Below, in pieces: positions 21,501-55,443 of a stretch of DNA of 64,000 nucleotides. Each line of letters begins with the position of its first letter. The stretch's first letter is position 1. The notes under the pieces were generated by a model. The model did not search any database and was not told the DNA's origin. It saw only the letters and a list, made by a program, of their open reading frames with translations. Origin of the DNA: an uncultured Gammaproteobacteria bacterium (GTDB lineage: Bacteria > Patescibacteriota > Patescibacteriia > XYB2-FULL-38-15); assembly GCA_965231095.1 (NCBI GenBank), contig OZ246416.1, positions 343,277 to 407,276 on the forward strand, given 5' to 3'. The translations under genes and the position numbers were made by a program.

Positions 21501-21703
21501 CCCTTGCGTGGGATTTAAAGATAGTCAAAAATGACTAAAATTTTATTTTTGTTTTGTAATCCCTTTTCTCCAAACCAACTTATGTTGATTTAGAGGAAAG
21601 GGACTTGGAGCAAGCGAACATCACTTTGCATCTTGCGATGTTTGGTGAATGCGGTCCGAATTGCTCGGACCTGCTTGCTCCAAGATCTGGGTTGGACTTC
21701 TCT

Positions 21704-22687
21704 CTAGCGGCGCTTGCCCTTGCCGCCCTTCTTGTCGCCGCCCTTGCCCTTGTGGCGGTTGGAGTCGTCACCGAACTGGAAGCGCACGCCGCGCTTCTCC
21801 ATCTCGGCCCTGTCGCGCGCCTGCTCGGCGGCGAGACGCTCCCGGCGCGCGTCGCGTCGCGCTTCCCGCTCGGCGCGGGAAAGCTTCAGCTTCGCCGGCT
21901 CGGCCACGGGGACGGCCACGACCGCCGGTTCGGGCTTCTTCGGGGGCGGGACGCTCTCTCCCGCCGCCTTCTTCTGCCGCCGTTCGGCTTCGAACGCGGC
22001 ACTGCGGTAGTAGTCAAAGGGGTTGACGTGCCGGAGCGCTCCGGCCTCGAGCAGGATCATGAACTGCTTCTGACAAATCCCCGCGACCTCGTACTTGCCC
22101 TCCGCGTTCTTCACGATCGCGAAGCGCGTGGCCAGACCCTCATTGCGGCAGAGCTTGCAGCCCGGCACCCCGCAGAGCACCTTGCCGCTCTCGTCGCGCC
22201 GCGCCTGGAGCGGCTCGGCCTTGGCGGCCACGACCGCCTTCCAGTAGTCCACGGCGGCCGCCTGGGCGTGGATCGCGGCGTTCCTCACGCCGACGATCCC
22301 GTAGAGCGCCCCGATCTTCATCAAACGGCGGCGCTCTTCGGGCGGCATCCGCTCCGCGCAGATGTTGCAGATCGGCTCGAAGCCCCAGAGCTTCAGCCGG
22401 TCCCGCACGACCTCGACCAGCAGGGCCAGCTTGATCTTCCCGACGCTGTTGCCGTCGGTGTGCCCGCACTTCGAGCACACCCTCTTCTTCGGCTTCGCGG
22501 GCTCGACGGCCACGACGATCGGGTCGACCGGCTTCTCCGGCTCGGCCGCGATCTCGGCCACGACCGCCTCCGCCACCTCCGTCTTCACGAAGGACGGCAT
22601 GGCGGCCGCGATCAGGGCTTCGTAGTCCTCGTCGGTCAGGGTGCCCATCGGCACCGGAACCAGGATCGCTTCCATCGTTTCCGCCAT
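21704..22687 (-). CDS. Hypothetical Cys-cluster protein encoded in a high-GC island (two CxxC...CxxC zinc-ribbon-like pairs; Ala/Glu/Arg-rich; K/G-rich basic C-terminal tail)
   Basis: 327 aa ORF with AAGGAG RBS 7 nt upstream of ATG; protein-like composition unlike the Arg-rich opposite-strand ORF; region roughly 70% GC. Confidence 0.6.
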   Translation of the reverse strand: MAETMEAILVPVPMGTLTDEDYEALIAAAMPSFVKTEVAEAVVAEIAAEPEKPVDPIVVAVEPAKPKKRVCSKCGHTDGNSVGKIKLALLVEVVRDRLKLWGFEPICNICAERMPPEERRRLMKIGALYGIVGVRNAAIHAQAAAVDYWKAVVAAKAEPLQARRDESGKVLCGVPGCKLCRNEGLATRFAIVKNAEGKYEVAGICQKQFMILLEAGALRHVNPFDYYRSAAFEAERRQKKAAGESVPPPKKPEPAVVAVPVAEPAKLKLSRAEREARRDARRERLAAEQARDRAEMEKRGVRFQFGDDSNRHKGKGGDKKGGKGKRR

Positions 22688-23029
22688 GTTCAGTCTCCTT
22701 TTTCTCTTCGGTGGCAGTTACGAAAAATCAGATCGGAAACCGATCTGACCTTGGCTTCCCGCTAAACGGGATGTGCCAGAGGAATTTGGAGGTGAGTTGG
22801 CCTGTTCTGATAACACAGAACTGGCCGGTGGCATTTTGGTCAATTAACTTTTAGTAACCCCGAAAATCGAGATACCGAAATTTAATTGAGCCTCATGCCG
22901 AGTCTCGCGGTCACCAATTAATGGTCCGCAAAAACCTTCCTCCTCCAAATTTCTCTGGCACTATTTTGTAAAGAACCAGCACGACAAGCACTCTTTTTGA
23001 TCTTTAAGCCTATTTCAGCTTAACAAGTA

Positions 23030-23058
23030 AGTATAACATATATTCCGTATTTTGTCAA
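23030..23058 (-). promoter_or_regulatory. Candidate sigma70 promoter (TTGACA-17-TATACT on minus strand) about 340 nt upstream of the GC-rich gene, implying a long hairpin-rich 5' leader
   Basis: Consensus hexamers read on minus strand. Confidence 0.4.
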
Positions 23059-23165
23059 GAGGTTTTGACATTATTTTATATAAAATTCATATTTTTGGCT
23101 TAAATTAGCCAAAATAAATTGTTTATTTAAACACGAAATTAACGAGTATTTACAAATTTTAACAA

Positions 23166-23216
23166 ATAATAAAAATCCCTCTCCCCGGTGGGGAGAGGGC
23201 AGGGTGAGGGGGCAAA
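23166..23216 (-). terminator. GC-rich palindromic repeat copy 2 acting as lepA intrinsic terminator (cctctcccc-ggt-ggggagagg, then T-run on minus strand)
   Basis: Hairpin plus atttttattatt on minus strand, immediately 3' of lepA stop. Confidence 0.5.
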
Positions 23217-23256
23217 TTACCAATTTTCCATGATTTCAACTCCTAACTTCCGGCCT

Positions 23257-25035
23257 CTACTTCTTCAAAACGGCTAAAAATGCCTCGGGCGGAATATCAA
23301 CTTTACCCATTGCCTTCATTTTTTTCTTGCCCTTTTTCTGTTTTTCTAAAAGTTTGTTTTTTCGCGTCACGTCTCCGCCGTACAGCTTCGCGGTCACGTC
23401 TTTTTTCATCGCCGGTAAATGTTCCGAGGCAATAATTTTTCCGCCGAGCGCCGCCTGAATTTTAACTTCAAACATTTGCCGCGGCAAAACTTTTTTTAGT
23501 GACTGAACAATTCTCCGGCCCACATCCTGCGCCGTGTCGCGATAAACAATTGTTGCCAACGCCTCAACCGGTTCGCTCGCGACCAAAATATCCATCTTCG
23601 TAACTTCGGCTTTTTTATATCTAAAAAATTCATAATTCAATGAAGCATAACCCGAACTCACACTTTTTAATTTGTCATAAAAATCCACAAGAATTGCCGA
23701 GAGCGGAATTTCATAATGCAAAATTACCCGATCGGCGTCAAGATATTCTGTGTTTGAATATACTCCCCTTTTTTCCTGAACCATTTGCATAATCCCGCCG
23801 ATGTAGGCGCTTGGCGAAACTACATCAATTTTTATCCACGGCTCTTCAATAAATTCTATCCGCGACGGATCGGGCAATTCCGCCGGGCTCTTTACAATTA
23901 CTGTTTCATTTTTTTGGTTAGTAACACGATAAGCCACGGACGGAACCGTGACAATCACATCTAAATTATATTCCCGCCGCAAACGTTCCTCCACTATTTC
24001 AAGATGAAGCAAGCCCAAAAGACCGCAGCGAAAACCAAAACCCAAGGCTTTTGATTGCTCCGTTTCAAAAGTGAGCGAGGCGTCGTTTAATTTTAATTTT
24101 AAAATCGCTTCGCGGAGTTTTGGAAAATCATCTCCTTCTTTGCAAAAAATCCCCGCAAAAACCATCGGCTTCACTTCTGTATATCCCGGTAAACCTTGCA
24201 CCATAGATTCTGAATTCTTACTTGTTATCGTATCGCCCACGCGGCACTTTTCAATTTCTTTCAAGCCCGTGACAATATAGCCGATTTCTCCGACTGATAA
24301 TTTTTCCGCCGTCTGAAATTTTGGTTTAAAATATCCTACTTCCAAAACTTCGCTTTCGGTTTTCGTCGCCATCAAAAACATCTTGTCGCCGCGGCGCACT
24401 TCGCCGTCAACCACGCGAACATAAGCAACAACGCCTTTATAATCATCGTACTTGGAATCAAAAATTAAAGCGCGAAGCGGCCGATCGGTTTTACCAACCG
24501 GCGGAGGAACTTTTTCCACGACCGCTTCCAAAATTTCCGGCACGCCAATGCCTGTTTTTCCGGAGGCCAAAATCACTTCTTCTCTGCTGCATCCGACCAA
24601 CGCCACAATTTCCTGAATTGTTTTTTCCACTTCCGCATTTTTTAAATCAACTTTATTGACAACCGGAATAATCGCGAGGTTTTGCTCCAGAGCCAGATAT
24701 AAATTTCCCAAAGTCTGCGCTTGCACGCCCTGCGTCGCGTCCACCAAAAGCAGAGCGCCTTCCACCGCGGCGAGCGATCGGGAAACTTCATAATTAAAAT
24801 CAACATGGCCCGGAGTATCAATTAAATTCAAAATATAATCTTTATAATTCATTCTGACCGGCTGAAGTTTAATCGTAATCCCCCGCTCCCGTTCCAAATC
24901 CATCATATCAAGCAGTTGATCTTTCATTTCTCTTTTGGAAACTGTTCCGGTAAATTCCAAAAGGCGGTCGGCGAGCGTCGATTTCCCATGGTCAATATGT
25001 GCAATGATACAAAAATTTCTTATTTTATCCTGCAT
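23257..25035 (-). CDS. lepA: Elongation factor 4 (translational GTPase LepA)
   Basis: 592 aa; G1 motif AHIDHGKST, DTPGHVDF, NKVD. Confidence 0.95.
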   Translation of the reverse strand: MQDKIRNFCIIAHIDHGKSTLADRLLEFTGTVSKREMKDQLLDMMDLERERGITIKLQPVRMNYKDYILNLIDTPGHVDFNYEVSRSLAAVEGALLLVDATQGVQAQTLGNLYLALEQNLAIIPVVNKVDLKNAEVEKTIQEIVALVGCSREEVILASGKTGIGVPEILEAVVEKVPPPVGKTDRPLRALIFDSKYDDYKGVVAYVRVVDGEVRRGDKMFLMATKTESEVLEVGYFKPKFQTAEKLSVGEIGYIVTGLKEIEKCRVGDTITSKNSESMVQGLPGYTEVKPMVFAGIFCKEGDDFPKLREAILKLKLNDASLTFETEQSKALGFGFRCGLLGLLHLEIVEERLRREYNLDVIVTVPSVAYRVTNQKNETVIVKSPAELPDPSRIEFIEEPWIKIDVVSPSAYIGGIMQMVQEKRGVYSNTEYLDADRVILHYEIPLSAILVDFYDKLKSVSSGYASLNYEFFRYKKAEVTKMDILVASEPVEALATIVYRDTAQDVGRRIVQSLKKVLPRQMFEVKIQAALGGKIIASEHLPAMKKDVTAKLYGGDVTRKNKLLEKQKKGKKKMKAMGKVDIPPEAFLAVLKK

Positions 25036-25069
25036 ACCAAAAAAATCCTAATTCATAATTCATAATTTA

Positions 25070-26698
25070 TTACCTCGGTCCTTCTTCAATATTAACAATC
25101 GGTTTTTTAATTCTGAATAATTTATATTTTACGGCGTCGCGAACCGCAGTCATTTCTCGCGAACCAAGTGTCAGGGCGACCGCAGAAAAAATTAAAATCC
25201 CAACCGATCCGGCGCCCAGTCCTTGCCCAAGCACGCCCAAAAAAGTTTGCATATCAACATAGGGCGCGAGAATCGCTTTCATTGTTTGTGCGGCAAAAGC
25301 CATGAGCGAAGCGGCGGCGGAAATTTTAAAAGTTGATTTCAAAATATTTCCTTCGTCAAGCGGCCCGAATTTTATCCGAAGCACGATCCAGAGTAAAATA
25401 AAATTCAAAACTGAAGCCAAGGAAAATGCCATAGCCAAACCGGCGACCCCCCAGGGCCCTACCAAAAAAATCGCCGCCAAAATATTTACTGCCGCGGAAA
25501 TTAAACCAATAAAGAACGGTGTTTTGCTATCCTGCAGAGCGTAAAAAAATCTTGCCAAAAGCGGGATCAGAGCTTGGGCAAACAAACTCAAAACAAAATA
25601 CGCGAGCGTATCGGCCGTCAAAATCGTATCTTCCCAATTAAAATATCCGGCGCCAAAAATAACGCGGACAATTTGCGCGCGAAGCACTAAAAATAAAACC
25701 GAAGCGGGAATAATAAAAAAAACAATTTGCCGCGTGGTCTCTGAAAAACTTTTTATCATTTCTTCTTTTTTTCCGGCGGCGGCAAATTCTCCCAAAAGCG
25801 GAAAGGCGGCCACGGCAAAAGAAATCCCAATTATCCCCACGGGAAAATATTGTAAATTATTCGCTAAATTAAAAATCGCCAAACTTCCCGGAACCAAAGC
25901 TGAAGCAATAATTGTCATTACGACTAAATTTATTTGCGACACGGCAAGCCCAAGAGTTCTGGGAATCATCATCTTCCCAATCGCCCTGATTTTTTTATTT
26001 GCTAAATCAAAAAGCGGAGCGTAACGAAAGCCTAGCCGCCAGGCGGCAGGCGCTTGAATTAACATATGTGCCGCGGCGCCCAAAACCACGCCCCAGGCCA
26101 AACCATAAATTCCCCACCATCGCGTAAAAAATAGAGCACCGATAATGATGCCGATGTTGTAAAAAATTGGCGCCAGGGCGTAAACAAAAAATCTCCTGAA
26201 AGATTGTAAAACGCTTCCTAAAATATTGGAAAATCCCAAAAAAATCGGCGAGAACATCATTATCTGTGTCATCGTGACCGTCATCGCCATTTTTTCCGGA
26301 CCAAATCCCGGAGTAATCACAGGAACGATCCATGGCGCGAGCACGATAAACAAACCGCAAAGCACGGCGAGCGAGGCGCCCATAATATTCATCACGCTGT
26401 TTGCGATTTTCCAGGCTTCTTTCGGCTCTTCATTTTTTTCTTTGGCGGCGCAAATCGCGGCGGTAAAAATCGGAATAAATCCGGCGGAAAGCGCGCCCAA
26501 AATCAACAAATTAAAAATCAAATCCGGAATGCGGAAGGCGGCATAATAAATATCCAGCGTGTCACCGGCGCCGAATTCTCCGGCGAGAACGCGATCGCGA
26601 AGAACGCCCAAAAAACGAGATGCCAAAGAAGCTGCTCCCAAAAGAAGAGCAGCTCCGGTAATAGTTTTTGATTCTCCGTTTAAAATCTTACCAAACAT
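25070..26698 (-). CDS. murJ: Lipid II flippase MurJ (MviN)
   Basis: 542 aa, ~14 TM; N-terminal LASRFLGVLRDRVLAGEFGAG...DIYYAAFRIPD. Confidence 0.9.
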   Translation of the reverse strand: MFGKILNGESKTITGAALLLGAASLASRFLGVLRDRVLAGEFGAGDTLDIYYAAFRIPDLIFNLLILGALSAGFIPIFTAAICAAKEKNEEPKEAWKIANSVMNIMGASLAVLCGLFIVLAPWIVPVITPGFGPEKMAMTVTMTQIMMFSPIFLGFSNILGSVLQSFRRFFVYALAPIFYNIGIIIGALFFTRWWGIYGLAWGVVLGAAAHMLIQAPAAWRLGFRYAPLFDLANKKIRAIGKMMIPRTLGLAVSQINLVVMTIIASALVPGSLAIFNLANNLQYFPVGIIGISFAVAAFPLLGEFAAAGKKEEMIKSFSETTRQIVFFIIPASVLFLVLRAQIVRVIFGAGYFNWEDTILTADTLAYFVLSLFAQALIPLLARFFYALQDSKTPFFIGLISAAVNILAAIFLVGPWGVAGLAMAFSLASVLNFILLWIVLRIKFGPLDEGNILKSTFKISAAASLMAFAAQTMKAILAPYVDMQTFLGVLGQGLGAGSVGILIFSAVALTLGSREMTAVRDAVKYKLFRIKKPIVNIEEGPR

Positions 26699-26707
26699 TT
26701 TCTGTTT

Positions 26708-27883
26708 TTACTTTTTTATTTTTTTCGCAATCATTAACTCTTCATTGGTCGGAATCGCCAAAACCCGCGGCGACCCGAAAATTTTCATATCTTTCATAAT
26801 TAAAGCTCTAACTATTTTATTTCTCTCCCCGATGCCAGCGGTAAAAACTATCGCGTCAACTCTTCCCAAAACCGCCCCGTAGGCTCCCAAATATTTTTTG
26901 ACACGGTAAATAAAAACCTGTAACGCGAGTTTTGCTAACTCCTTCTTCTCCGCGCTGACTTTTTTACTTTTGAAATTCGCCACTTTATAGCCGGCGGCAA
27001 GAAGTACGTCCCGCATATCGGAAAATCCAGAGAGTCCGAGCATGCCAGATTTTTTATTTAAAATATTATCAACTTCTTCGGGCTTTATTTTTAATTCGCG
27101 AATCAGATAAAGCGGAATTGCGGGATCAAGGTCGCCGGAACGAGTTGACATCACGAGTCCTTCAAGCGGCGTAAAACCCATACTCGTATCCACTGCCCGG
27201 CCGCCACAAATTGCCGTAATGGAGGCCCCGCTTCCCAAGTGACACGTGATGAGGTTTAATTTCGCGAGCGGTTTCTTTAAAATTTTTGCCGCCTCATTCG
27301 CCACATATTCATGCGAAATTCCGTGAAATCCATAACGACGAATCTTGTGCTTCTTATAAAAATCAATTGGCAGAGCGTAAGTATAGGCAAAATCCGGAAG
27401 AGTGGAATAAAAGCCCGTATCAAAAACCGCGACATTTTTTGCGCCGGGCAAAAGCTTCCCGCAAGCCCGAATTCCCATTAAATTTGCGGGGTTATGCAGC
27501 GGGGATAACTTATCATATTTTGATATTTTTTTCAAGACCGCTGGCGTAATGATTGTTGGTTTAGTAAACTCTTCGCCGCCGTGAACCACGCGATGGCCGA
27601 CCAGCGTGATTTCAGATTTCAGATTTGAGATTTTAGATAATTGCTCCAAAACTAATTTAAAAGCCTCTTCGTGATTTTTTACCGCGCGGAAAATTTTTAA
27701 CTCTCTCCCCGAAATTTTAAATTCCAAAAAACTTCCGCCCAAACCGATGCGCTCCACGACTCCCGATGCCGCCTCTTTCAAATTTCCAAAATCAAAAACC
27801 TTAAACTTCAATGTCGCGCTGCCGGAATTTATAACCAAAATATATTTCATAATTATTCTAAAATCAGTTCTCCAAAACTGCAA
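26708..27883 (-). CDS. ackA: Acetate kinase
   Basis: 391 aa; N-terminal ILVINSGSATLKFKVF, conserved HLGSGASITA and ERN motifs. Confidence 0.9.
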   Translation of the reverse strand: MQFWRTDFRIIMKYILVINSGSATLKFKVFDFGNLKEAASGVVERIGLGGSFLEFKISGRELKIFRAVKNHEEAFKLVLEQLSKISNLKSEITLVGHRVVHGGEEFTKPTIITPAVLKKISKYDKLSPLHNPANLMGIRACGKLLPGAKNVAVFDTGFYSTLPDFAYTYALPIDFYKKHKIRRYGFHGISHEYVANEAAKILKKPLAKLNLITCHLGSGASITAICGGRAVDTSMGFTPLEGLVMSTRSGDLDPAIPLYLIRELKIKPEEVDNILNKKSGMLGLSGFSDMRDVLLAAGYKVANFKSKKVSAEKKELAKLALQVFIYRVKKYLGAYGAVLGRVDAIVFTAGIGERNKIVRALIMKDMKIFGSPRVLAIPTNEELMIAKKIKK

Positions 27884-28434: not shown

Positions 28435-28435
28435 A

Positions 28436-29434: not shown

Positions 29435-29436
29435 AA

Positions 29437-29733
29437 TTATCTTTTTAATTTCTTTAATTGCGTAATCAATTTATCCTTTGCGAGGTCAATCGCCTCAACA
29501 ATTGTGTGGTCGTCTTCACTCACGAGAAAACTTTGTTTTGGCAATTTTAAATCGAAAGTAATCTTGTATGCGCTGTTTGTCATAAACTTTTCTGCCTTAA
29601 TCCGGAGCGAAACCGAATCTTCCGCTTGGCGGTGAATTAATTTTTCTAACTGCGGAATTTTCGTCTCCACATATTCTTCGCACCACTTCTTCTCCGCCGG
29701 AGTAAGATTTTTGAAAAAATAATCAATTTGCAT
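29437..29733 (-). CDS. hpf: Ribosome hibernation promoting factor (HPF/RaiA family)
   Basis: 98 aa; RaiA-like fold signature (IDYFFKNLTPAEKKWCEEYVETKIPQLEK...). Confidence 0.8.
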   Translation of the reverse strand: MQIDYFFKNLTPAEKKWCEEYVETKIPQLEKLIHRQAEDSVSLRIKAEKFMTNSAYKITFDLKLPKQSFLVSEDDHTIVEAIDLAKDKLITQLKKLKR

Positions 29734-29800: not shown

Positions 29801-29829
29801 TTGACAATTTGTTAAATATCTGATATTAT
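29801..29829 (+). promoter_or_regulatory. Near-consensus sigma70 promoter TTGACA-17-TATTAT driving the GC-rich DUF218 cassette
   Basis: Hexamers and 17-nt spacer read directly; ~17 nt upstream of the GTG start. Confidence 0.55.
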
Positions 29830-29845: not shown

Positions 29846-30391
29846 GTGACTAGAAAGAAGGATGCCGTGCGCTACTTGTTCATCCCGAGCTGCGAAGTGG
29901 CAACGAAAGATACGCTGGAGGGCACCACGACCGAAAAGCGTCTCATCCGCGGACTCGCGCTCTGGCAGAGCGGCAGGTTCGATGCGATCATCGTGACGGG
30001 CGGCGTCTATCTTCCGCCGGAACAGCAGACGCTCCCCTCGGGAATCCTGATGAGACAGTGGCTCGTCGAAAAGGGCGTCCCCGAGAAGGCGATCATCTGC
30101 GAAGATCGCTCGCGCGACACCTACGAGAACATCACCGGCGCCCTGACGCTCATCACCGACGACCCCGCGCCAGAGTTCACGGTCGTGACCCACTGGCAGC
30201 ACGCGCTGCGGTTTTGGGTGACCTTCCGCCTCGCGCACCGGCGCAAAATACGCCTCGTGCCGATGTGGTACTGGATCGGTCTCAAGGGTTTCGTGTTGGA
30301 GTGGGCGATGTTGCTCATCCACATCGTCGACCCGAGAGGAACCGGAAAAATCGCAACCCGGAATCGCGAAACGCGCAGCCAGAAGTCGTGA
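29846..30391 (+). CDS. DUF218 (YdcF/SanA/ElyC-like) domain protein encoded in a high-GC island; GTG start, TGA stop
   Basis: 181 aa; DAIIVTGG...LMRQWLVEKGVPEKAIICEDRSRDTYENI matches DUF218 core; region ~65% GC. Confidence 0.7.
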   Translation: MTRKKDAVRYLFIPSCEVATKDTLEGTTTEKRLIRGLALWQSGRFDAIIVTGGVYLPPEQQTLPSGILMRQWLVEKGVPEKAIICEDRSRDTYENITGALTLITDDPAPEFTVVTHWQHALRFWVTFRLAHRRKIRLVPMWYWIGLKGFVLEWAMLLIHIVDPRGTGKIATRNRETRSQKS

Positions 30392-30427
30392 AACGGTTCG
30401 CCGCGAACCACCGAGAAAGGAAAAAGC

Positions 30428-30658
30428 GTGGAAAACGAATTGAGGAGGCAACCCCGACAGTTCAAGTTCGTGGCAGTAGGAATGGCCTTGTTCGCGCTCT
30501 TGACGATTCCCAGTGCGGTCATTGCCCTCATCCTGCCAGCACCGATCGGCATGATGTTTTTCAAGCTGGTCATCTCCACCGGAACCGTGGCGATCGTGAT
30601 CTTCCTGGCGCTGGTGCGACGAAGCATCAAGCGACGAGAGAAGGGGGAGCACACCTAG
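30428..30658 (+). CDS. Small two-TM membrane protein of unknown function (GC-rich island, GTG start)
   Basis: 76 aa; two hydrophobic helices (VAVGMALFALLTIPSAVIALIL; ISTGTVAIVIFLALV). Confidence 0.45.
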   Translation: MENELRRQPRQFKFVAVGMALFALLTIPSAVIALILPAPIGMMFFKLVISTGTVAIVIFLALVRRSIKRREKGEHT

Positions 30659-30671
30659 CGACGGAACAAGT

Positions 30672-30727
30672 CGTAAAACCAGCCACACGGCTGGATCGAG
30701 AGCCTTCGACAAGCTCTCTTTTTTTAT
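30672..30727. terminator. Back-to-back intrinsic terminators: plus-strand gagagccttcgacaagctctc + T7; minus-strand ccagccgtgtggctgg + TTTT
   Basis: Two hairpins with flanking T-runs on respective strands. Confidence 0.55.
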
Positions 30728-37268: not shown

Positions 37269-37297
37269 TTGACAAAAATTTTCTCTACCGATAAGAT
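37269..37297 (+). promoter_or_regulatory. Near-consensus sigma70 promoter TTGACA-17-TAAGAT upstream of a GC-rich small gene
   Basis: Hexamers read directly; followed by AAGGAG RBS. Confidence 0.5.
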
Positions 37298-37819: not shown

Positions 37820-37901
37820 TACAAAAATTATTCTGATCAGCTGCTCACTTGTCTTGAATTTATATTTTTGATAGAGTAAATAAAAGTTTTGTACTCACCT
37901 T

Positions 37902-37972
37902 TCGGGGATCGTCTAGCGGTAGGACGCCAGGTTCTGGCCCTGGTAACCTTGGTTCGAATCCAAGTCCCCGAG
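37902..37972 (+). tRNA. tRNA-Gln (anticodon CUG)
   Basis: Hand-folded cloverleaf: acceptor tcgggga/tccccga, D-loop with GG, anticodon arm ccagg-ttCTGgc-cctgg, T-loop ttcgaat; CCA not encoded. Confidence 0.75.
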
Positions 37973-37989
37973 AAGTGGGCGCAAAAAAA

Positions 37990-48189: not shown

Positions 48190-48277
48190 ATTCTATAAAC
48201 TTTATTAACTTTATTTAAGTATAACATAAATCAGAAAGACAAAAAATACCCCCGCGCCAAGGCAGCGGCATGCGACA

Positions 48278-48316
48278 AATAAAAAAACGCCGGACAAAAG
48301 CACAAGTGTCCGGCGT
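48278..48316 (-). terminator. Intrinsic terminator of the GC-rich LysM gene (acgccggaca...tgtccggcgt + T8 on minus strand)
   Basis: 10-bp perfect stem and T-run read directly. Confidence 0.6.
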
Positions 48317-48360
48317 AGAAAAAACAACCAAGAAAAATCCTCCCAAAAATATCGCCGAAT

Positions 48361-50334
48361 TTATTCGGGCTTCGGCAAACCCGTATCGTGTGTGGCGTGT
48401 TCCCAGGCGTATTCTTCGGCCGAAACAGCCCGCCTGCACACGCTGCAGTAGAACTCGCTCTCTTCGTGCGAGGGCTCGGCGGCGACCGGAATATGCGGTC
48501 CGGTTTCGTGAGAGACATCCGCACTCGCCGGGGGTGGCGGCGCGCACGACCCAAGATGCGCTTCCCGAGACGCGAGGGGAACTTCTTCTCCGTCTGGCCG
48601 CACGCACGTTTTCGAACCGGGGATTTCTTCCCTCGCGCCGATGCCGTGCGCCACGGCCCGATGTTCGTCCAGCTTGTCGAACGAAACCTCGTGTCCGCAG
48701 TCGGGACAGAGAACCTTGGTCACCCCCATCACTGGTTCCGAACCGGGCGGATCGATACCTGTCATGTCGCTCGGATCGTCTGGGGGCGGAGGGAGCCTTC
48801 TTGTTTCTCCTTCGTCGTCCGCCTCACGGGACAGATCTCTGTGCCGTTCTTCTCGGTCATCCAGCCCACGCGCTCGATCTTCGAGTTCCTGTCGCGCTTC
48901 AGCGGTGAATCGCTCGAATTCGGCTTGCCTCCTCCGAAGATCATCCTCGGCTCTGGCGAGCCTTTCTTCCACCGCTCTCACGTCCCGCTCGCGCCCGGCA
49001 AGAACTGCCGAATGGTCTGTCACTTCGCCTTCCCGCCGAGTAACTTCGTCCTCTCTGGCCTTGAGTTGACGCCTCTGCTCCTCAAGAGCAGGGACGTCTT
49101 CGTCAAGGCAACGCATGGCTCCTTCCACTGCGCCGCGCTGCTTGGCAAACTCGGCCTGTTCGGTGCGAAACTGCGCGGAAGTTTGGTCTAGAATTTCACG
49201 GAGACTGGCAAGCCTTCTCTCCTTCTCTTCCTGAGTTGCCGCTTGCCCCTCAAGCCTTGCTTGCGTGCCGTTCAGTTCACCGCGAAGTCGCCCGAGGCGT
49301 TCGTCTTCCTCACGGACATGCGTTGAAAAAGCCTTGGTGCGTCCCAGAAGTTGGTGCTCCGCTTCCTTGATCTCGCCCTCGCGGCGAGTGCAAGTCGCTT
49401 CCCGATCGGCCACAGCCCTCTTTGCCGCATCCAGATCGGCCTCGCCCTGCTTCTGCGTCGCCTCGCGCGCTGCCAGATCCTTCTCCTGTTTGTCCTGCTC
49501 GGCCTTCTCTTTGCCGAGCTTGGTCCCGAGATCGTCCTGCTCGCGCGCTTGCCGGTCGAGTTTCTTCTCCCACAGGTCCAGCTCCGCGCCGCGCTTCTTG
49601 TTCTTCTCGGCCTGCGCGATGAGGCCCGGATGGACAACCTGCACGAGATGATTGAACTTCTTGCCCTTGCGGTACGAGACGAACACGATGGCCAAAACCG
49701 CGACGAACGCGGTAAGCGCAACGGCCAAGACGATGTGGGTGGCGTTCGTCGCCCGAACTTCCACCTGCTTCGGCTGATGGGAAAGCACGGTTTCCAGATT
49801 GGACTGGAGTTCGTCGTGCTGGCCACTGGCCTCCGCCCTTGCCGCGACAAGACCCTTGTTCTCATCTCGCAAATCGTCGAGTTCGGAAATGAGATCGTCG
49901 CGCTCTTGCCGCACTTCGACGAGGTCGGATTTCTCCGCCTCGTACTTCTCTTCCAGCTCGGCCATTTCGGCTCGAAGCGCCTCAAGCTCAGTACGCAACG
50001 CGCCATTCTCGGCCTGGATCAAAATCCGCGGCTCGGGAACGATGAGTGTCTTGCCGGCGATGAGGTAAACCCTCGGCCGGCCGCAAACAAACCGAATCGT
50101 TCCGTCTCGAAGCTCAATCTTCTGCGGCCTGTCGCAAGCAATGCCGTAGGCCGAGCGCGGATTGGCCGCCAGGAGCTCTTCTCCTGTCAGACCGTACCGC
50201 GCCGCTACCCGCTCCAGTCGATCTCCCGGCTGGACCGTGTAGGTTCCGGGCTCACTGGCCGAACCTTCCGCCGAAGCGGAAGCCGCCCGAACGAACCCGA
50301 GCGCCAGAGCGAAAAGAACAACTACCTTTTTCAT
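48361..50334 (-). CDS. GC-rich island protein: signal peptide - LysM domain - coiled coil - TM helix - long Glu/Arg/Ala coiled coil - two C-terminal C2H2-type zinc fingers
   Basis: 657 aa; LysM YTVQPGDRLERVAARYGLTGEELLAANP; TM HIVLAVALTAFVAVLAIVFVSY; CPDCGHEVSFDKLDEHRAVAH and CSVCRRAVSAEEYAWEHATH (C-x2-C-x12-H-x3/4-H); GGGAGGG RBS; ~62-65% GC. Confidence 0.65.
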   Translation of the reverse strand: MKKVVVLFALALGFVRAASASAEGSASEPGTYTVQPGDRLERVAARYGLTGEELLAANPRSAYGIACDRPQKIELRDGTIRFVCGRPRVYLIAGKTLIVPEPRILIQAENGALRTELEALRAEMAELEEKYEAEKSDLVEVRQERDDLISELDDLRDENKGLVAARAEASGQHDELQSNLETVLSHQPKQVEVRATNATHIVLAVALTAFVAVLAIVFVSYRKGKKFNHLVQVVHPGLIAQAEKNKKRGAELDLWEKKLDRQAREQDDLGTKLGKEKAEQDKQEKDLAAREATQKQGEADLDAAKRAVADREATCTRREGEIKEAEHQLLGRTKAFSTHVREEDERLGRLRGELNGTQARLEGQAATQEEKERRLASLREILDQTSAQFRTEQAEFAKQRGAVEGAMRCLDEDVPALEEQRRQLKAREDEVTRREGEVTDHSAVLAGRERDVRAVEERLARAEDDLRRRQAEFERFTAEARQELEDRARGLDDREERHRDLSREADDEGETRRLPPPPDDPSDMTGIDPPGSEPVMGVTKVLCPDCGHEVSFDKLDEHRAVAHGIGAREEIPGSKTCVRPDGEEVPLASREAHLGSCAPPPPASADVSHETGPHIPVAAEPSHEESEFYCSVCRRAVSAEEYAWEHATHDTGLPKPE

Positions 50335-50416
50335 TTTTCCCTCCCTTGACCCCTTGGGCCAAGAAGTCGGTTATAAAGGAACAAAGCCCAACCCATCATT
50401 GGGTAAGCCTCCGTAT

Positions 50417-50445
50417 ATTTAAATCGTTTTCTCTGATTTTGTCAA
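50417..50445 (-). promoter_or_regulatory. Candidate promoter on minus strand (TTGACA-17-TTAAAT) for the LysM/ZnF gene
   Basis: Hexamers read on reverse complement. Confidence 0.45.
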
Positions 50446-50446
50446 C

Positions 50447-50480
50447 CCCAAAAACAAAAATCGCCGCCAAACCAAGCGGC
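50447..50480 (-). terminator. dnaJ intrinsic terminator (gccgc...gcggc hairpin + TTTTTGTTTTTGGGG on minus strand)
   Basis: Stem-loop and T-run read directly. Confidence 0.5.
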
Positions 50481-50509
50481 AATTTTTAAAATTTTAAAAT
50501 ACCAAAAAC

Positions 50510-51586
50510 TTAACTCTTATCCAATTCTTCCAATAATTCTTTTTGCCGACGGGAAAGATTGGTCGGCGTCATAACAATAACTTCCACCAGTTGATCCCCG
50601 CGGCCGTAACTATTTAAATGCGGCACGCCTTTTCCTTTCAAACGGAAAATCTGTCCCGACTGCGTTCCCTCCGGAATGGTTAATTTTATTTTTCCATCCA
50701 AAGTTTCTATTTCAATTTTTTCACCCAGCGCCGCCTGACTAAAATTTATTTCCACCCGACTTAAAATATCATCTTTCTTTCTTTTAAATTCTTTATCCGG
50801 CGCGATACTCATTGTCACAAATAAATCTCCTGCCTTTCCGCCGTGTTCGGCTGCCTCCCCTTCTCCGGAAATTTTTATCGTCTCGCCGTCATCAATCCCG
50901 GCCGGAATTTTTATTTTCAATTTTTGGCTGTCGCGGGTAACGCCTTTGCCGCGGCAAACTGAACATTCTTTTTCCGGAATTTTTCCCGCCCCGCCGCACT
51001 TACTGCAAGTCGCAACTGTTTGAATATTTCCTAAAAATGTTCGCTGGAGAACTTGCACCCGACCCGATCCGCCGCAATTTACGCAAGAGACAACTTTACT
51101 TTTGGGATCCGCGCCGCTTCCCCCGCAATTTTTACAAACGGAGGGCTTATACATTTCTAAAACTTTTTCCGTGCCAAAAATTGCTTCGCGAAAATCAATC
51201 CTCATTTCAACTTCAATATCCCGGCCGCGGGAGGCGCGCGATTTTTTTCTTCCGCCGCCAAAAACATCGCCAAATCCAAACATCTCTCCCAAATCTCCCA
51301 TATCAAAACCATTAGCAAAACCGGAAAAATCCCTGAAGCCCTCAAAACCAGAAAAACCACCTTGACCCTGAGCGTTTTCAAAGGTGGTTCCGAATTGGTC
51401 GTACTGTTGGCGTTTCTCCGGATTTCCCAAAACTTGGTAGGCCTCGTTGATTTCTTTAAACTGATCCGCGTTCCCGCCATTTTTATCCGGATGATATTTG
51501 TGCGCCAACTCGCGGAAGGCTTTTTTAATTTCTTCCGCTGACGCAGTTTTCGAAACGCCTAAAATTTTATAATAATCTTTTGCCAT
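50510..51586 (-). CDS. dnaJ: Molecular chaperone DnaJ (start placed at MAKDYYKILGV with AAGGAAA RBS; ORF track extends to 51709)
   Basis: J-domain HPD motif (KYHPDKN), G/F-rich linker, four CxxCxGxG zinc repeats. Confidence 0.9.
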   Translation of the reverse strand: MAKDYYKILGVSKTASAEEIKKAFRELAHKYHPDKNGGNADQFKEINEAYQVLGNPEKRQQYDQFGTTFENAQGQGGFSGFEGFRDFSGFANGFDMGDLGEMFGFGDVFGGGRKKSRASRGRDIEVEMRIDFREAIFGTEKVLEMYKPSVCKNCGGSGADPKSKVVSCVNCGGSGRVQVLQRTFLGNIQTVATCSKCGGAGKIPEKECSVCRGKGVTRDSQKLKIKIPAGIDDGETIKISGEGEAAEHGGKAGDLFVTMSIAPDKEFKRKKDDILSRVEINFSQAALGEKIEIETLDGKIKLTIPEGTQSGQIFRLKGKGVPHLNSYGRGDQLVEVIVMTPTNLSRRQKELLEELDKS

Positions 51587-51616
51587 CTTCTTTTTCCTTT
51601 TTTCTTTCCGGCGAAA

Positions 51617-51744
51617 ATTAGTCGCTAAGAAAAACTTGCGGAGGCCTCGCGGGCATGGTTTGTCGCGAAGCGACAAGAGCGAGGCCGAGCATTGAGCAGC
51701 GATTTTCACGCTGGGAAAATAGACTGCGTTTTTTCTTGTGACTA
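51617..51744 (-). promoter_or_regulatory. Structured dnaK-dnaJ intergenic element: ~20-bp long-range IR (aattagtcgctaagaaaaa / tttttcttgtgactaatt) enclosing GC stem ggcctcgc...gcgaggcc and inner hairpin ttgtcgcgaagcgacaa
   Basis: Nested inverted repeats read directly. Confidence 0.4.
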
Positions 51745-51755
51745 ATTCGAGCCTC

Positions 51756-53666
51756 TTATTTTACTTCTTCAAACTCCCCTTCCACTGTCTTATCTTTTTT
51801 CTTTTCATCTTTATTCCCTGAGCCTGTCGAAGGGCCGGCTCCACCTTGCGGCGGCTGTTGCTGCTGCTGCGACTGGTACATCGCCGCGCCGACTTTCTGC
51901 GCCGTTTGCGCTAAATCATCAGCCGCTTTCTTGATGGCTTCTTTATCATCGCTATCCTTCACTTTTTTCAACGCTTCCATTTTTTCTTCAATCGCTTTTT
52001 TGTCTTCAGCCTTAACTTTATCTCCCGCGTCTTTTAACATTTTTTCCGTGGTATAAATTATCGTCTCGGCGGTATTTCGCAAATCAATCAATTCTTTTTT
52101 CTTCAAATCATCGGCCGCGTGCGCCTCGGCTTCTTTTTTCATCCGCTCAATTTCATCTTTTGACAAACCGGTTGAGGCAGTAATGGTGATTGATTGTTCA
52201 ACGTTCGTGGCTTTATCTTTTGCTTTCACATTTAAAATTCCATTAGCATCAATATCAAAAGTCACTTCAACCTGCGGCACGCCGCGCGGCGCCGGAGGAA
52301 TTCCCGAAAGCATAAATCTTCCCAAAGTTTTATTATCCGCCGCCATTGGCCGCTCGCCTTGCAACACATGAATCTCAACCGAAGTCTGGCCATCAGCAGC
52401 CGTAGAAAATACTTGCGACTTGGAAGTCGGGACTGTGGTATTGCGGTTGATTAATGGAGTCAAAACTCCGCCCAATGTTTCTAAGCCCAAAGTTAATGGT
52501 GTAACATCAAGCAATAAAATATCGCGCACTTCTCCTTGCATAACTCCGGCCTGAACCGCCGCGCCAATCGCCACAACTTCATCGGGATTGACCGACAAGT
52601 TTGGTTTTTTTCTAAAAAAGTTTTCCACGGTCTGCAAAACCAAAGGCATTCTTGTCATTCCGCCGACCATGACCACTTCCTGAATATCTTTAATATCCAT
52701 TTTCGCGTCGGCCAATGCTTTTTTGCACGGCTCCAAAGTCGCCTGAACCAAATCGCCAACCAATTCTTCCAATTTTGCCCGCGTCATTTTCATTACCAAA
52801 TGTTTCGGTCCGCCGGCGTCGGAAGTAATGAATGGCTGATTGATTTCCGATTCCATGGCGGTTGATAATTCTATTTTCGCTTTTTCCGCCGCTTCTTTAA
52901 TTCTTTGCAACGCCAAATTATCTTTTGATAAATCAATCCCCTGATCTTTTTTAAATTCATTCAAAATCCAGTGAATTATTCTCTGGTCAAAATCGTCGCC
53001 GCCCAAATGCGTGTCGCCGTTTGTCGCTTTCACTTCCACCGTGTCCTGGCCAATATCCAAGACCGAAACATCAAAAGTTCCGCCGCCCAAATCGTAAACG
53101 ACAATTTGCTGTCCTTTTTTCTTATCCAAACCATAAGCCAAGGCCGCGGCGGTTGGTTCGTTAATAATTCGGCGAACTTTCAAGCCCGCGATTTCTCCGG
53201 CTTCTTTGGTCGCCTGGCGTTGCGCGTCGTCAAAATAAGCCGGCACGGTGATGACCGCTTCTTCAATTTTCTCCCCGATTTTTTCTTCCGCGTCGCTTTT
53301 CATTTTCTGCAAAACCATGGCGGAGATTTCCTGCGGAGAATATTCTTTGTCCGACATTTTTATTTTCACCCCGACTCCGGATTGGACAATTTTAAAAGGC
53401 AAAACTTTCATATCGCGCTGTACTTCCGTATCGTCAAAACGCCGGCCGATTAAACGCTTAATGGAATAAAGTGTGTTTTCCGGATTGGTCACCGATTGGC
53501 GTTTAGCAATCTGTCCGACCAATCTTTCGCCGTTTTTTGAAACAGCGACAACCGAAGGCGTGGTTCTCGCGCCCTCTTTATTTTCCAACACTTTCGGCTC
53601 GCCGCCTTCAATGACGGCCATGCAAGAATTAGTAGTTCCGAGATCTATACCTAAAATCTTTGGCAT
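51756..53666 (-). CDS. dnaK: Molecular chaperone DnaK (Hsp70)
   Basis: 636 aa; [19 protein letters not shown]-terminal EEVK-like tail. Confidence 0.95.
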
Positions 53667-53684
53667 ATTATTTATACTTTGTAA

Positions 53685-54386
53685 TTATTTATTTTTGTTA
53701 ATTATATTTTGTGCGTATTTTGACGGCACACAAAGCCCCATGTTGGCAGGAATGTCCGCAACTTTTCCGTCAGGCAACGGAATTTTTGAAGAAATTTTTC
53801 CGCTTGCCATCGCCACAACTTTTCCGCTATCTACGGAAAAAACCGGCGAACCGCTGGAGCCGTTATTAATGTGTGTATCAACCATAAAAAAATGCAACGA
53901 GCCATCAACGCCTCTCCTTTTGACAGCGCTGATAATACATTTACTCGCATTCATCGTGACGCCAAAATTCATCATCATGAGTTCTAAAGCCAACGGATAA
54001 CCCAAAATCAAAACTTCGTCACCTTCGTTAATTTTTTCCGAGTCATCAAATCCTTCAATTGCCTGAAATTCCGCCGCACTATCCGTTATCTGCATTAATG
54101 CCGTGTCATTTTCAACATCAATATCCAAAAACTTCATTGGATATTTTTTGTAGTGAGCAATTCCCCTTTCGTCAATTTTGTCTGGAAGCATAATGCCCAA
54201 ATACTGCCGATCATTTTCTGCGATTTGGTTGTAGACGTGTGCACAAGTTAAAAATTTACCGTCCGAGCTAACTACAAAACCCGTGCCGCGTATGCTAACC
54301 TGGCTTTGTCCATTTGCCGACGGTTTTTCAATCGCCACTAAACCGATTGATTTTTTGTTTTCTCCAATAATTTTTGACGTTTTCAT
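53685..54386 (-). CDS. Trypsin-like (S1/S1C-type) serine peptidase, apparently cytoplasmic (no signal peptide, no PDZ)
   Basis: 233 aa; His motif TCAHV, Ser motif GSSGSPVF. Confidence 0.75.
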   Translation of the reverse strand: MKTSKIIGENKKSIGLVAIEKPSANGQSQVSIRGTGFVVSSDGKFLTCAHVYNQIAENDRQYLGIMLPDKIDERGIAHYKKYPMKFLDIDVENDTALMQITDSAAEFQAIEGFDDSEKINEGDEVLILGYPLALELMMMNFGVTMNASKCIISAVKRRGVDGSLHFFMVDTHINNGSSGSPVFSVDSGKVVAMASGKISSKIPLPDGKVADIPANMGLCVPSKYAQNIINKNK

Positions 54387-54393
54387 ATCAATT

Positions 54394-54945
54394 TTATTTA
54401 TAAATTATTTTTTTATTAAAATTTACGAACTCCCCAATTTTATTATCTAATCTCTCTCGGTACCTGGGATAATATTTTTCAGGACTACCGTATTTTTGTA
54501 GAGCGCTTGCTTTCGGTAAAAAAAATATTGGTTTTTGGAAAGCCAAACAGGAAAGGACTACTACGTGATAGTCGGAAGTTGCTCGGACGGGGTAAATTCC
54601 TCCCATAGCCAACGCCACATCGAAGGGTCCATACTTTTTGACCATCTCATCAATAACGGGACCCTGGGTGCCCGAAAGAATTTGTTCGAGTTTGAGTTTT
54701 TCAAATCTTCCGTCAGAATTAGAACAAAGCTCTCCCTCTAAAGTAAGAATTCTCGTCCCTGCGCTAATTTCACCGCCGTAACTTGAATAAATATCGCCCC
54801 TTGTACAACAGGCGTCCAGAACGATACTCCCCGTACGGCCTTGTATTAATTGCCTAGTCAAACTCGATCCCCAATCTACAATTTCTGATTTAACTCCGCC
54901 GCCGTCAGGAGTGTTTAAAAAACATTTTAAAATTTTTTGAGACAT
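54394..54945 (-). CDS. Hypothetical protein co-operonic with the trypsin-like peptidase and dnaK
   Basis: 183 aa; 8-nt gap to downstream peptidase gene; no recognisable domain. Confidence 0.4.
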   Translation of the reverse strand: MSQKILKCFLNTPDGGGVKSEIVDWGSSLTRQLIQGRTGSIVLDACCTRGDIYSSYGGEISAGTRILTLEGELCSNSDGRFEKLKLEQILSGTQGPVIDEMVKKYGPFDVALAMGGIYPVRATSDYHVVVLSCLAFQKPIFFLPKASALQKYGSPEKYYPRYRERLDNKIGEFVNFNKKIIYK

Positions 54946-55031
54946 AAAGTTATAAATTATTTATTTTAATTCTCCGCAAATTTCTGTTCTCCGCCTTGGG
55001 CGGAGGACAATTTATCTGCAAACAATTACTC

Positions 55032-55059
55032 TTGACTTTTTTTAAATTTGTGATAGAAT
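55032..55059 (+). promoter_or_regulatory. Near-consensus sigma70 promoter TTGACT-16-TAGAAT upstream of a GC-rich small gene
   Basis: Hexamers read directly. Confidence 0.5.
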
Positions 55060-55119
55060 TTTTCATTCGGATGATCATTTTCTCCCCCTGAGGGAGCGAC
55101 CGAAAAGGAGGGCAAACCA

Positions 55120-55413
55120 GTGGAAAAACCTCGGGACATAAATCTGCTCGGTCTGGCTATCATCGAACATCGCGGCGACGGCGAGACCGTTGTCGGCAGA
55201 ATCGAATTCGCCAGTGTGACCGGCGATGGCTGTCTCGACGTTGACTGGCATCACACCGGCGACTGGGTGATGGGCAGAGAGACGCTGTTCATACCGAAGT
55301 GCTGGCGCTGCAACGTCGCGGCGAACGGCATCTTCCTCGAGCGCACCAGCAAGGAGCCGCACGGACTCAAGAGTCCGTGGCACGACGCAGAGCTGTACGA
55401 GATCCTGTGGTAG
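55120..55413 (+). CDS. Hypothetical 97-aa protein in a GC-rich islet (GTG start, AAGGAGGG RBS, TAG stop)
   Basis: Promoter-RBS-ORF-terminator architecture on plus strand; ~60% GC; contains CWRC and WHH motifs but no recognised domain. Confidence 0.5.
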   Translation: MEKPRDINLLGLAIIEHRGDGETVVGRIEFASVTGDGCLDVDWHHTGDWVMGRETLFIPKCWRCNVAANGIFLERTSKEPHGLKSPWHDAELYEILW

Positions 55414-55443
55414 AGGGCGACAGCGATCCCGTTCCGCCTCATC

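Follow-up and report, generated by a model that had tools for sequence, protein, structure and literature searches.

G+C-rich transcription units that are very probably long-standing residents, not recent imports, of an AT-rich Patescibacteria genome

We analyzed 64,000 nucleotides of a Patescibacteria genome (GenBank contig OZ246416.1, positions 343,277 to 407,276; the whole stretch is referred to below as the window) for short G+C-rich units that stand out from an AT-rich backbone. An original prediction, made by reading the letters alone, had marked five such stretches as cassettes recently acquired by horizontal transfer. Sliding windows and codon usage confirmed all five and revealed a sixth, at 58.0–59.0 kb, that had been missed; we number them islands 1–6 from left to right. 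They are, as predicted, compositional outliers and self-contained transcription units, lying in gaps between housekeeping genes. Based on the comparison with relatives, however, it is very likely that they are resident, syntenic units in a maintained GC-rich state rather than a recent import. Four islands (1, 3, 4, and the RNA island 6) have been passed on in place throughout the clade, and islands 2 and 5 occupy hypervariable slots whose cargo is gained and lost; all islands evolve far faster than their neighbors. Their use of G/C-ending codons is stable, kept by a filter against changes from G/C to A/T.

Atypical composition is routinely taken as a mark of recent horizontal transfer, and this reading fails for these islands. 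Genes with a G+C content at third codon positions (GC3) of 0.6–0.9 have persisted in a genome with a GC3 of 0.43 while neighboring synonymous sites fully turned over, and no outside donor was found in the databases searched.

Composition and Codon Usage of the Islands

Measured in 400-bp windows, G+C is 0.68–0.70 at 21.6–22.8 kb, 0.57–0.62 at 29.8–30.7 kb, 0.55 at 37.4–37.8 kb, 0.59–0.65 at 48.4–50.4 kb, and 0.54–0.57 at 55.0–55.6 kb, compared with approximately 0.43 in the rest of the window. Taken as a whole, the coding stretches of islands 1–5 have a G+C of 0.55–0.69. The sixth peak, island 6 (0.61–0.68 at 58.0–59.0 kb), is non-coding. In islands 1–5, the strong three-base periodicity of the open reading frames (ORFs) fixes the coding frames. 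While the 55 backbone ORFs have a GC3 of 0.432 ± 0.037 with a maximum of 0.494, the six island ORFs, from island 1 to island 5, have values of 0.93, 0.82, 0.77, 0.52, 0.67, and 0.78, corresponding to z-scores of 13.4, 10.3, 8.9, 2.7, 6.3, and 9.2 against the backbone genes. Two-fold NNY codons end in C at frequencies of 0.63–0.93 in the islands and 0.11–0.38 in the backbone, and these ranges are disjoint. Codon usage therefore falls into two classes, with no gradient between islands and backbone, and the island ORFs show the atypical composition and codon usage by which genomic islands are recognized.

The rise in G+C ends at the limits of the island ORFs, and lepA, recJ, and dnaJ have ordinary GC3 right beside them. 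In islands 1 and 4, G+C is elevated at all three codon positions. The genes for DnaK, Hsp20, HPF, and the pilins have ordinary codon usage without a GC3 shift; because of this, and because the codon indices are bimodal, we rejected a gradient of expression level as the explanation. Adenine mutagenesis of the kind caused by diversity-generating retroelements, or deamination of one strand, was also rejected, as neither AT skew nor the codon table indicates A depletion on the sense strands.

The coding islands comprise the following features:

21704..22687, minus strand: island 1 ORF, 327 amino acids, GC3 0.93
22688..23025, minus strand: island 1 5' leader RNA, from folding and covariation
23030..23058, minus strand: island 1 promoter TTGACA-17-TATACT, invariant in a five-genome alignment
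29801..29829, plus strand: island 2 promoter TTGACA-17-TATTAT, read from the sequence
29846..30391, plus strand: island 2 ORF a, DUF218/YdcF family, 181 amino acids, GC3 0.82
30428–30658, plus strand: island 2 ORF b, peptide with two transmembrane (TM) segments, 76 amino acids, GC3 0.77
30698–30726, plus strand: island 2 terminator
37269–37297, plus strand: island 3 promoter TTGACA-17-TAAGAT, conserved in the relative L131
37337–37768, plus strand: island 3 ORF, 143 amino acids, TTG start given by P0054
37784–37818, plus strand: island 3 terminator
48281–48316, minus strand: island 4 terminator
48361–50334, minus strand: island 4 ORF, 657 amino acids
50417–50445, minus strand: island 4 promoter TTGACA-17-TTAAAT
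55032–55059, plus strand: island 5 promoter TTGACT-16-TAGAAT
55120–55413, plus strand: island 5 ORF, 97 amino acids, GC3 0.78
55451–55483, plus strand: island 5 terminator

The promoters, Shine-Dalgarno (SD) sites, and terminators that had been predicted are present at the places given for them. A scan for promoter hexamers is by itself weak evidence, because AT-rich DNA yields many promoter-like sites (38 by a simple consensus scan, with 23.5 expected, in 20 kb of this DNA), and the solid support comes from conservation in relatives, which holds for the promoters of islands 1 and 3. The strand assignment stood for islands 2, 3, and 5, which are on the plus strand together with corA as the fourth plus-strand gene of the window, and was corrected for islands 1 and 4, whose genes share the minus strand with the backbone.

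Two tRNA genes whose products decode G-ending codons only, tRNA-Gln(CUG) at 37901–37973 and tRNA-Glu(CUC) near 60100–60260, both adjoin islands. The stretch 60100–60260 between tRNA-Glu(CUC) and a Mur ligase gene is itself GC-rich and hairpin-prone, and has no Rfam match at E ≤ 1.

Conservation and Divergence in Relatives

The relatives are Patescibacteria assemblies, of the candidate phyla radiation (CPR), from several independent projects, and were retrieved with the RecJ and DnaJ proteins of the window. They derive from JAHIRI01, JBAZEY01, JBMORR01, JBGSRW01, JGI 3300048655, 3300037810, Ga0265297, and Ga0172379, and from ENA and Logan assemblies; L numbers denote their loci. Gene order is kept, flanking proteins are 79–96% identical to those of the window, and each assembly shows the same island arrangement but has diverged in sequence in its own way. 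As the arrangement recurs in assemblies made independently, in several projects and from several samples, an assembly chimera or an engineered insertion, both raised by the original prediction, is excluded for all practical purposes, in spite of the textbook look of the units (consensus promoter, strong ribosome-binding site [RBS], and clean terminator). Four islands have counterparts in place:

Island 1, lepA–recJ gap, same strand: carriers L001, L002, L005, L007, L045, and L134; protein identity 29–64%; GC3 0.89–0.94
Island 3, gap between a PD-(D/E)XK nuclease gene and tRNA-Gln: carrier L131; protein identity 50% (nuclease 85%); GC3 0.68
Island 4, dnaJ–x632 gap: carriers L047, L049, L051, L053, and L058; protein identity 30–50%; GC3 0.58–0.72 (0.84 in the 181-amino-acid fragment of L058)
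Island 6, YidC–SPFH gap: carriers L049 and L052; non-coding; G+C raised

Wherever a relative covers the site of island 1, 3, 4, or 6, the island is there in the same orientation, and such orthologs in place are what the original prediction had itself named as evidence against recent acquisition. The island 3 homolog in L131 has a G+C of 0.57 overall.

Between the window and its nearest relatives, the flanking genes have synonymous divergence (dS) of 0.7–1.5, which is near saturation, and non-synonymous divergence (dN) of 0.04–0.10. By comparison, dN is approximately 0.3 for island 1 and approximately 0.42 for island 4 (dS 1.4–1.6), and the DnaJ protein is 85–93% identical to that of the window in L047–L053, vs. 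30–50% for the island 4 protein next to it. In spite of the near-saturated dS of the flanks, GC3 stays at 0.89–0.94 in island 1 and 0.58–0.72 in island 4 in every lineage, and therefore the compositional contrast does not signal recency; amelioration toward the host composition is not seen in islands 1 and 4 across these lineages. Rapid evolution alone does not make a gene GC-rich, since x632, the fast-evolving neighbor of island 4 (dN 0.26–0.29), has an ordinary GC3 of 0.36–0.46.

Divergence of island 1 is nearly equal over the three codon positions (0.27/0.26/0.28). Polarizing third-position changes by majority rule is uninformative at saturation, so we restricted ourselves to comparing the numbers of G<->C changes and of changes toward A/T. 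Among third-position singleton changes from G or C, 26 are G<->C and 29 go to A/T in island 1, vs. 11 and 52 in lepA. G<->C changes are thus over-represented, and changes that lower G+C are filtered out. The dS of island 1 by the method of Nei and Gojobori (NG86), 0.37–0.43, is probably too low, as third positions are restricted to G/C, and the resulting dN/dS of 0.75 was not relied on. Alleles of island 1 also fall into classes that do not agree with the flanks (L005 and L007 against L045): the L005 allele is only 33% identical to that of the window, though in its flanks L005 is as close as L001.

The Island 1 Gene and Its Flanking Repeats

In the island 1 protein, two to three zinc-ribbon-like modules are combined with an invariant R-x-C-x2-C-G-H-x-D-G-N-S-V-G motif and a basic tail rich in Gly and Lys. 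On the opposite strand lies a 386-amino-acid ORF, but dual coding was rejected, since such a shadow ORF is expected from a GC3 of 0.93 and is broken in relatives. At the island 1 site of L003, a member of Falkowbacteria with a G+C of 0.37, there is a 210-amino-acid protein with Cys pairs that is 27% identical to the island 1 protein (pairwise E = 6e-5). Its GC3 is 0.52, vs. 0.30–0.35 in its neighbors, and it is probably the Falkowbacteria ortholog of island 1.

Direct repeats had been predicted around this island. They are real, with two 46-nt copies that are 80% identical:

21435..21480, plus strand: downstream copy of a hairpin element resembling a repetitive extragenic palindromic (REP) sequence
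23178..23223, plus strand: upstream copy, an insertion relative to the relatives

The element (CCCTCTCCCC..GGGGAGAGGG-GGGTGAGGGGGC) occurs in these two copies in the window and is absent from all 130 loci compared. It looks like a genome-specific element of the REP type or of the miniature inverted-repeat transposable element (MITE) type, and does not bear out the insertion mechanism suggested for the islands as a group.

Two relatives (L007, 9000–9650; L004, 1–520) have an additional GC-rich stretch, placed between the island 1 gene and recJ. The two stretches share ..EASD.GPPSVGQ.S.E..GA.KEGGG.. in one frame and have no equivalent in the window.

A Conserved Leader RNA Upstream of Island 1

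The island 1 promoter is located approximately 340 nt 5' of the ORF, and the interval is occupied by a structured leader of approximately 330 nt, which is not GC-rich and is conserved far better than the ORF. A closing helix of 20 bp (22773–22792 with 22942–22961) surrounds three stems, and 3' of this multi-stem domain there is a small hairpin followed by an intrinsic terminator at approximately 22723–22753, immediately before the RBS. In the closing helix, the SD-like GGAGGAGG is paired with an anti-SD-like CACCUCC strand. The minimum free energy (MFE) of folding has a z-score of −9.0. Across eight genomes, 97% of alignment cells are paired and 18 pairs are changed on both sides; shuffled controls have 7.7 ± 1.9 such pairs, none of 500 reaching 18, and slid controls have 2–4. 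The leader is present in all 10 loci with the island 1 gene (window 22688–23025, L001, L002, L005, L007, L045, and L133–L136) and in no other locus, apart from a diverged copy in the Falkowbacteria locus L003 (1040–1230). No credible Rfam match was found at E ≤ 5 for 21300–23300.

Taken together, folding and covariation make the covarying leader RNA of approximately 260 nt a candidate for a new structured RNA similar to a riboswitch or attenuator; alternatively, it could be a separate small RNA. A covarying, conserved multi-stem domain followed by an intrinsic terminator directly 5' of the RBS is shared with known leaders of this kind, whereas the lack of an Rfam family and the closing helix of SD-like and anti-SD-like strands set it apart.

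A Hairpin-Rich RNA with tRNA-Like Elements in Island 6

Island 6 consists of the following features:

58010..58831, minus strand: hairpin-rich, GC-rich, non-coding RNA of approximately 0.8 kb
58015–58045, minus strand: strong terminator at the end of the RNA
58832–58904, minus strand: tRNA-like element with an abnormal anticodon loop
58931–59005, minus strand: tRNA-like element with anticodon UCA
59083–59111, minus strand: promoter TTGACT-17-TATAAA

The promoter and the two tRNA-like elements make up the 5' part of the unit (58832..59111, minus strand). Counterparts are located at 2125–2950 in L049 and approximately 2050–3060 in L052. The RNA contains many near-perfect hairpins, with MFE z-scores of −12.2 for the window and −8.9 for the L049 counterpart. 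Conservation covers the promoter, the final 100 nt, and the terminator; between them, the modules are rearranged across genomes. A gene or pseudogene was rejected, since codon periodicity is lacking in three genomes and there is no long ORF even if TGA is read as sense. An Rfam search of 57850–60350 returned only tRNAs at E ≤ 1. Island 6 could be a large non-coding RNA or, alternatively, an array of palindromic REP-like elements. As a structured non-coding RNA of 0.8 kb with tRNA-like elements at its 5' side, it is reminiscent of GOLLD and ROOL, large ornate RNAs that are often found beside tRNAs, but it differs in having no Rfam match at E ≤ 1 and in its poorly conserved sequence with rearranged modules.

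The tRNA-like elements at 58832–58904 and 58931–59005 score 54 and 61 bits, respectively, with the Rfam tRNA model. Their anticodon stems are near-identical, and their loops are abnormal and align with an extra or missing base; the element without the UCA anticodon has a loop of 6 or 8 nt (AUCUCAGU). ARAGORN calls the anticodons as 'tc' and UCA, and finds no tRNA at the island 6 site in L049 or L052. Although a UCA anticodon would read UGA, recoding of UGA was rejected, as the backbone ORFs are intact under translation table 11, and in the 5 of 55 that have TGA as their stop, read-through would add short extensions.

Island 6 also contains, at 58132–58144 on the minus strand, the 13-mer GGAUUAGAUACCC, which we take to be identical to the 785–797 region (790 loop) of 16S rRNA. 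As GGATTAGATACCC, it occurs once in the window and once in the 136 loci (L052, 2271–2283), both times within the homologous island 6 RNA; the L052 copy is located in a tRNA-like element.

Islands 3 and 4

The island 4 protein combines a signal peptide and a LysM domain with a TM segment, a long coiled coil, and Cys/His pairs at the C-terminus. The original prediction of a LysM–TM–zinc-finger protein holds for LysM (Pfam PF01476, residues 32–69, 25.2 bits vs. a cut-off of 20.9) and the TM segment, whereas the zinc-finger matches are below their Pfam cut-offs. As had been expected, the small proteins of islands 3 and 5 have no family matches. It was also suggested that the islands might be parts of one dispersed system, but beyond their common style no link of their products into one system is apparent.

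Variable Cargo at Islands 2 and 5

Two of the islands are patchy, and for these the predicted acquisition is partly borne out. Since the cargo differs between genomes, genes have been gained and lost at both slots. The hpf–Gmad2 gap, the site of island 2, is occupied by a DUF218 gene in the window and L002; in L005 it holds an AT-rich gene instead, and in L045 other genes. The predicted identity of the products stands, with ORF a scoring 69.1 bits with Pfam PF02698 (cut-off 27.6, E = 4.7e-19) next to the two-TM peptide; the true start of ORF a is possibly the GTG at 29867. A fusion of DUF218 and TM peptide by read-through of TGA would be in frame (window 30389–30430), but the L002 DUF218 gene ends in TAA without a TM ORF, and we treat the frame as coincidence.

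DUF218 genes with different neighbors were found in L127 (GC3 0.69 vs. 0.29–0.40 in the backbone) and L130 (0.82 vs. 0.55–0.60), and in both loci they are again stand-alone units with a TTGACA promoter and a terminator. The GC-rich property thus travels with the gene rather than with the locus. Discrete stand-alone GC3-rich genes occur in at least three further CPR lineages sampled (L003, L127, and L130), and those of L127 and L130 suggest a widespread phenomenon. L127 also carries a lipoprotein-like gene (3033–3917) whose bias is essentially synonymous, because its GC3 is 0.85 but its GC1 and GC2 are 0.56 and 0.32, and two genes for small membrane proteins (10786–11040 and 11494–11811) with GC3 of 0.58 and 0.69. 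L130, like L127 a Parcubacteria locus, has a further stand-alone GC3-rich gene locus at 6827–7830.

A homolog of the island 5 protein was found only in L050 (48% identical, GC3 0.76). In L049, L052, and L057, island 5 is missing and the hsp20–dnaK slot holds unrelated, mostly AT-rich cargo. The heat-shock cluster hrcA–grpE–hsp20 ... dnaK–dnaJ is interrupted by this hypervariable slot (window 53685–55482; L049 5979–8046; L052 5972–7560; L057 1598–3482; L050 1–1930), with different cargo in each relative. For example, besides island 5 the slot of the window encodes a trypsin-like protease and a 183-amino-acid orphan, and that of L049 encodes a 555-amino-acid protein from an AT-rich gene, by eye a candidate DUF262/GmrSD-like protein.

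Search for a Donor or Mobile Source

The island 1 family has 11 members in a word-indexed search of 5.8 billion proteins and 13 in a profile search of 1.84 billion representative proteins, with no match beyond the family in either search; some members are rich in Lys, Glu, and Asn, a composition of the low-GC type. The DUF218 protein of island 2 has 31 close homologs, and all those with a source name are from Parcubacteria/Patescibacteria. The island 3 protein has only two homologs, approximately 50% identical. The families of islands 1–3 are confined to CPR-type assemblies, and among their large-database matches no GC-rich donor of matching composition was found; islands 4 and 5 were not searched there. 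IMG/VR, GenBank phages, and PLSDB plasmids hold no relatives other than distant YdcF proteins. Look-ups of the source genome's own proteins as exact products returned no entry. No genome was seen in which the island-type composition is native, and even in L130, with a G+C of 0.53, DUF218 is still above the backbone.

A shared insertion mechanism, as had been proposed, is not supported. No integrase or transposase was seen beside any island in the window, the 3' ends of the units have no attC-like element or common imperfect inverted repeat, the island terminators are mutually unrelated, and the repeats around island 1 are private to the source genome. The islands differ from integron gene cassettes in that each unit has its own promoter, they are dispersed, and there is no integrase. 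PADLOC defense models gave weak coiled-coil matches for island 4 only (E ≥ 0.003) and none for the other islands. We found nothing relevant in the literature on GC-rich gene classes in CPR.

Possible Causes of the G+C-Rich State

As to what maintains the islands, we rank selection first, biased conversion a close second, and a GC-rich mobile pool third. Selection is ranked first because the enrichment ends where the ORFs end, moves with genes from one locus to another, can be confined to synonymous sites, and is accompanied by strong expression signals; the consensus-like signals of each unit and the bimodal codon classes favor the same reading. The islands themselves are clade-restricted Patescibacteria transcription units, each equipped with a promoter, RBS, and terminator and placed in a fixed gap that separates housekeeping operons; on this reading, the filter would be selection on transcripts and their decoding, with island genes as a separate codon class. 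Strong transcription from the consensus promoters might yield GC-rich mRNAs that are long-lived, and these may be decoded via C-ending NNY codons and G-ending Lys, Glu, and Gln codons, the latter served by tRNAs with C at position 34, such as the adjacent tRNA-Glu(CUC) and tRNA-Gln(CUG). As an outcome, island expression could be decoupled from the AT-rich bulk transcriptome, for example in starvation or dormancy, and island 1 might be further gated by its riboswitch- or attenuator-like leader. While residence is very likely, the whole statement, with maintained resident units and selection on transcripts and decoding as the cause, is tentative and stands at somewhat less than an even chance.

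Several points weigh against selection. Strong synonymous selection is unexpected in slow-growing organisms with small genomes, or in quickly changing proteins; the genes for DnaK, Hsp20, HPF, and the pilins show no codon shift; and a preference for AAG, GAG, and CAG is not the usual signature of translational selection, whose direction is not measurable from the window as it has no ribosomal-protein gene. Beyond what composition gives, mRNA folding shows weak enrichment in the island 1 ORF (z = −4.2) and none in island 2 (z = −0.6), and AT-rich cargo occupies the same slots as the GC-rich units. Further, islands 1 and 4 are also GC-shifted at the first two codon positions, and the alleles of island 1 form classes that conflict with the flanks; both features fit GC-biased gene conversion as well. 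Here hypervariable alleles would be swapped between strains by recombination, or repair would be locally biased from A/T to G/C; conserved flanks, leader, and terminator would serve as homology arms, and each exchange would favor G/C, dragging along codon positions 1 and 2 and speeding up protein change. The accelerated protein evolution with near-equal divergence over codon positions in island 1, the excess of G<->C changes, the patchiness of islands 2 and 5, and the type IV pilus and competence-type machinery encoded in the window (PilM, T2SS E/F, and pilins) are all consistent with this. However, conversion tracts should spill over, whereas the island boundaries are sharp at the ORF ends, GC3 is ordinary in lepA, recJ, and dnaJ, and the leader is not GC-rich; alleles that are just 30–60% identical cannot form heteroduplex; and GC richness that follows DUF218 to different loci, a purely synonymous shift in L127 (3033–3917), and AT-rich cargo in the same slots are difficult to reconcile with conversion. 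We consider it an unlikely cause, though a serious one.

Replacement might instead outpace amelioration, if an unsampled GC-rich mobile pool of phages, plasmids, or GC-rich CPR lineages constantly supplied new units. The variable slots with cargo differing by genome, DUF218 in unrelated neighborhoods, and the incongruent island 1 alleles would agree with such a pool, as would a promoter and terminator of its own for each unit, as expected for cargo that works wherever it lands. It is nevertheless rather improbable, since the phage, plasmid, and IMG/VR collections hold no relative beyond the distant YdcF proteins, no genome with island composition as its native state was seen (DUF218 exceeds even the L130 backbone), islands 1, 3, and 4 are fixed in position, and the island 1 leader RNA is co-inherited as far as Falkowbacteria. 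The original prediction, in which high-GC donors recently supplied the units to neutral sites through one insertion mechanism, is less probable by far, and for islands 1, 3, 4, and 6 it is already contradicted. It would account for the compositional contrast, the direct repeats beside island 1, and the absence of islands 2 and 5 from some relatives, but the orthologs in place at near-saturated flank dS, the lack of donor homologs, the private repeats, and the absence of integrase, attC, or common end sequences all argue against it.

Comparison with Known Systems

Like genomic islets detected by composition, the islands have a sharp contrast in G+C and codon usage, lie between core genes, encode unannotated products, and in part (islands 2 and 5) vary in presence. 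Unlike such islets, most are syntenic across a saturated clade and yet unameliorated, with no donor, mobility gene, or attachment site. Further, foreign and orphan genes are usually AT-richer than the genome, whereas the islands are GC-richer.

In GC-biased gene conversion, as discussed for bacteria and for the mouse gene Fxy, GC3 far above the genomic level is likewise combined with faster amino-acid change and a shift at all codon positions; after Fxy moved into the pseudoautosomal region, its GC3 was reportedly driven up and its amino-acid change accelerated. By contrast, the island effect far exceeds what has been reported for bacteria, stays within single ORFs and ends sharply there, and accompanies DUF218 from locus to locus.

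The codon-dependent bldA/TTA regulon of Streptomyces is similar in that a minority of genes uses genome-rare codons, by which expression could depend on particular tRNAs, and here tRNA-Glu(CUC) and tRNA-Gln(CUG) adjoin islands. However, the islands are recoded over the whole ORF rather than at one codon and in the opposite compositional direction, and the link to tRNA supply is hypothetical.

If the pattern is general, composition-based calls of horizontal gene transfer in CPR genomes would be unreliable, and a strong, gene-limited force on base composition, either selection on transcripts or biased conversion, would act in organisms thought to be weakly selected for codon usage. It would also flag a clade-specific, fast-evolving gene set and two new RNA candidates in a little-known lineage. 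A more far-reaching reading, which we regard as doubtful, is that Parcubacteria-type CPR genomes hold a second, actively maintained compositional compartment of self-contained, rapidly diversifying, G/C-recoded single-gene units. This compartment, whose GC3 reaches 0.93 against 0.43 for the genome, would persist across genera and loci, and might be made by a codon- and tRNA-based expression program, mirroring bldA/TTA control at the level of whole genes, or by unusually strong, cassette-limited biased conversion. Together with new RNAs that would copy 16S sites (the anti-SD by the island 1 leader, the 790-loop GGAUUAGAUACCC by the island 6 RNA), it might amount to a module for the control of translation or dormancy.

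Other Observations

Apart from the islands, local G+C rises to as much as 0.52 at 15600–16200, with a reversed GC skew. This stretch lies inside a 355-amino-acid ORF (15112–16179), whose protein is the least conserved of its block, at 43–61% identity in the closest relatives.

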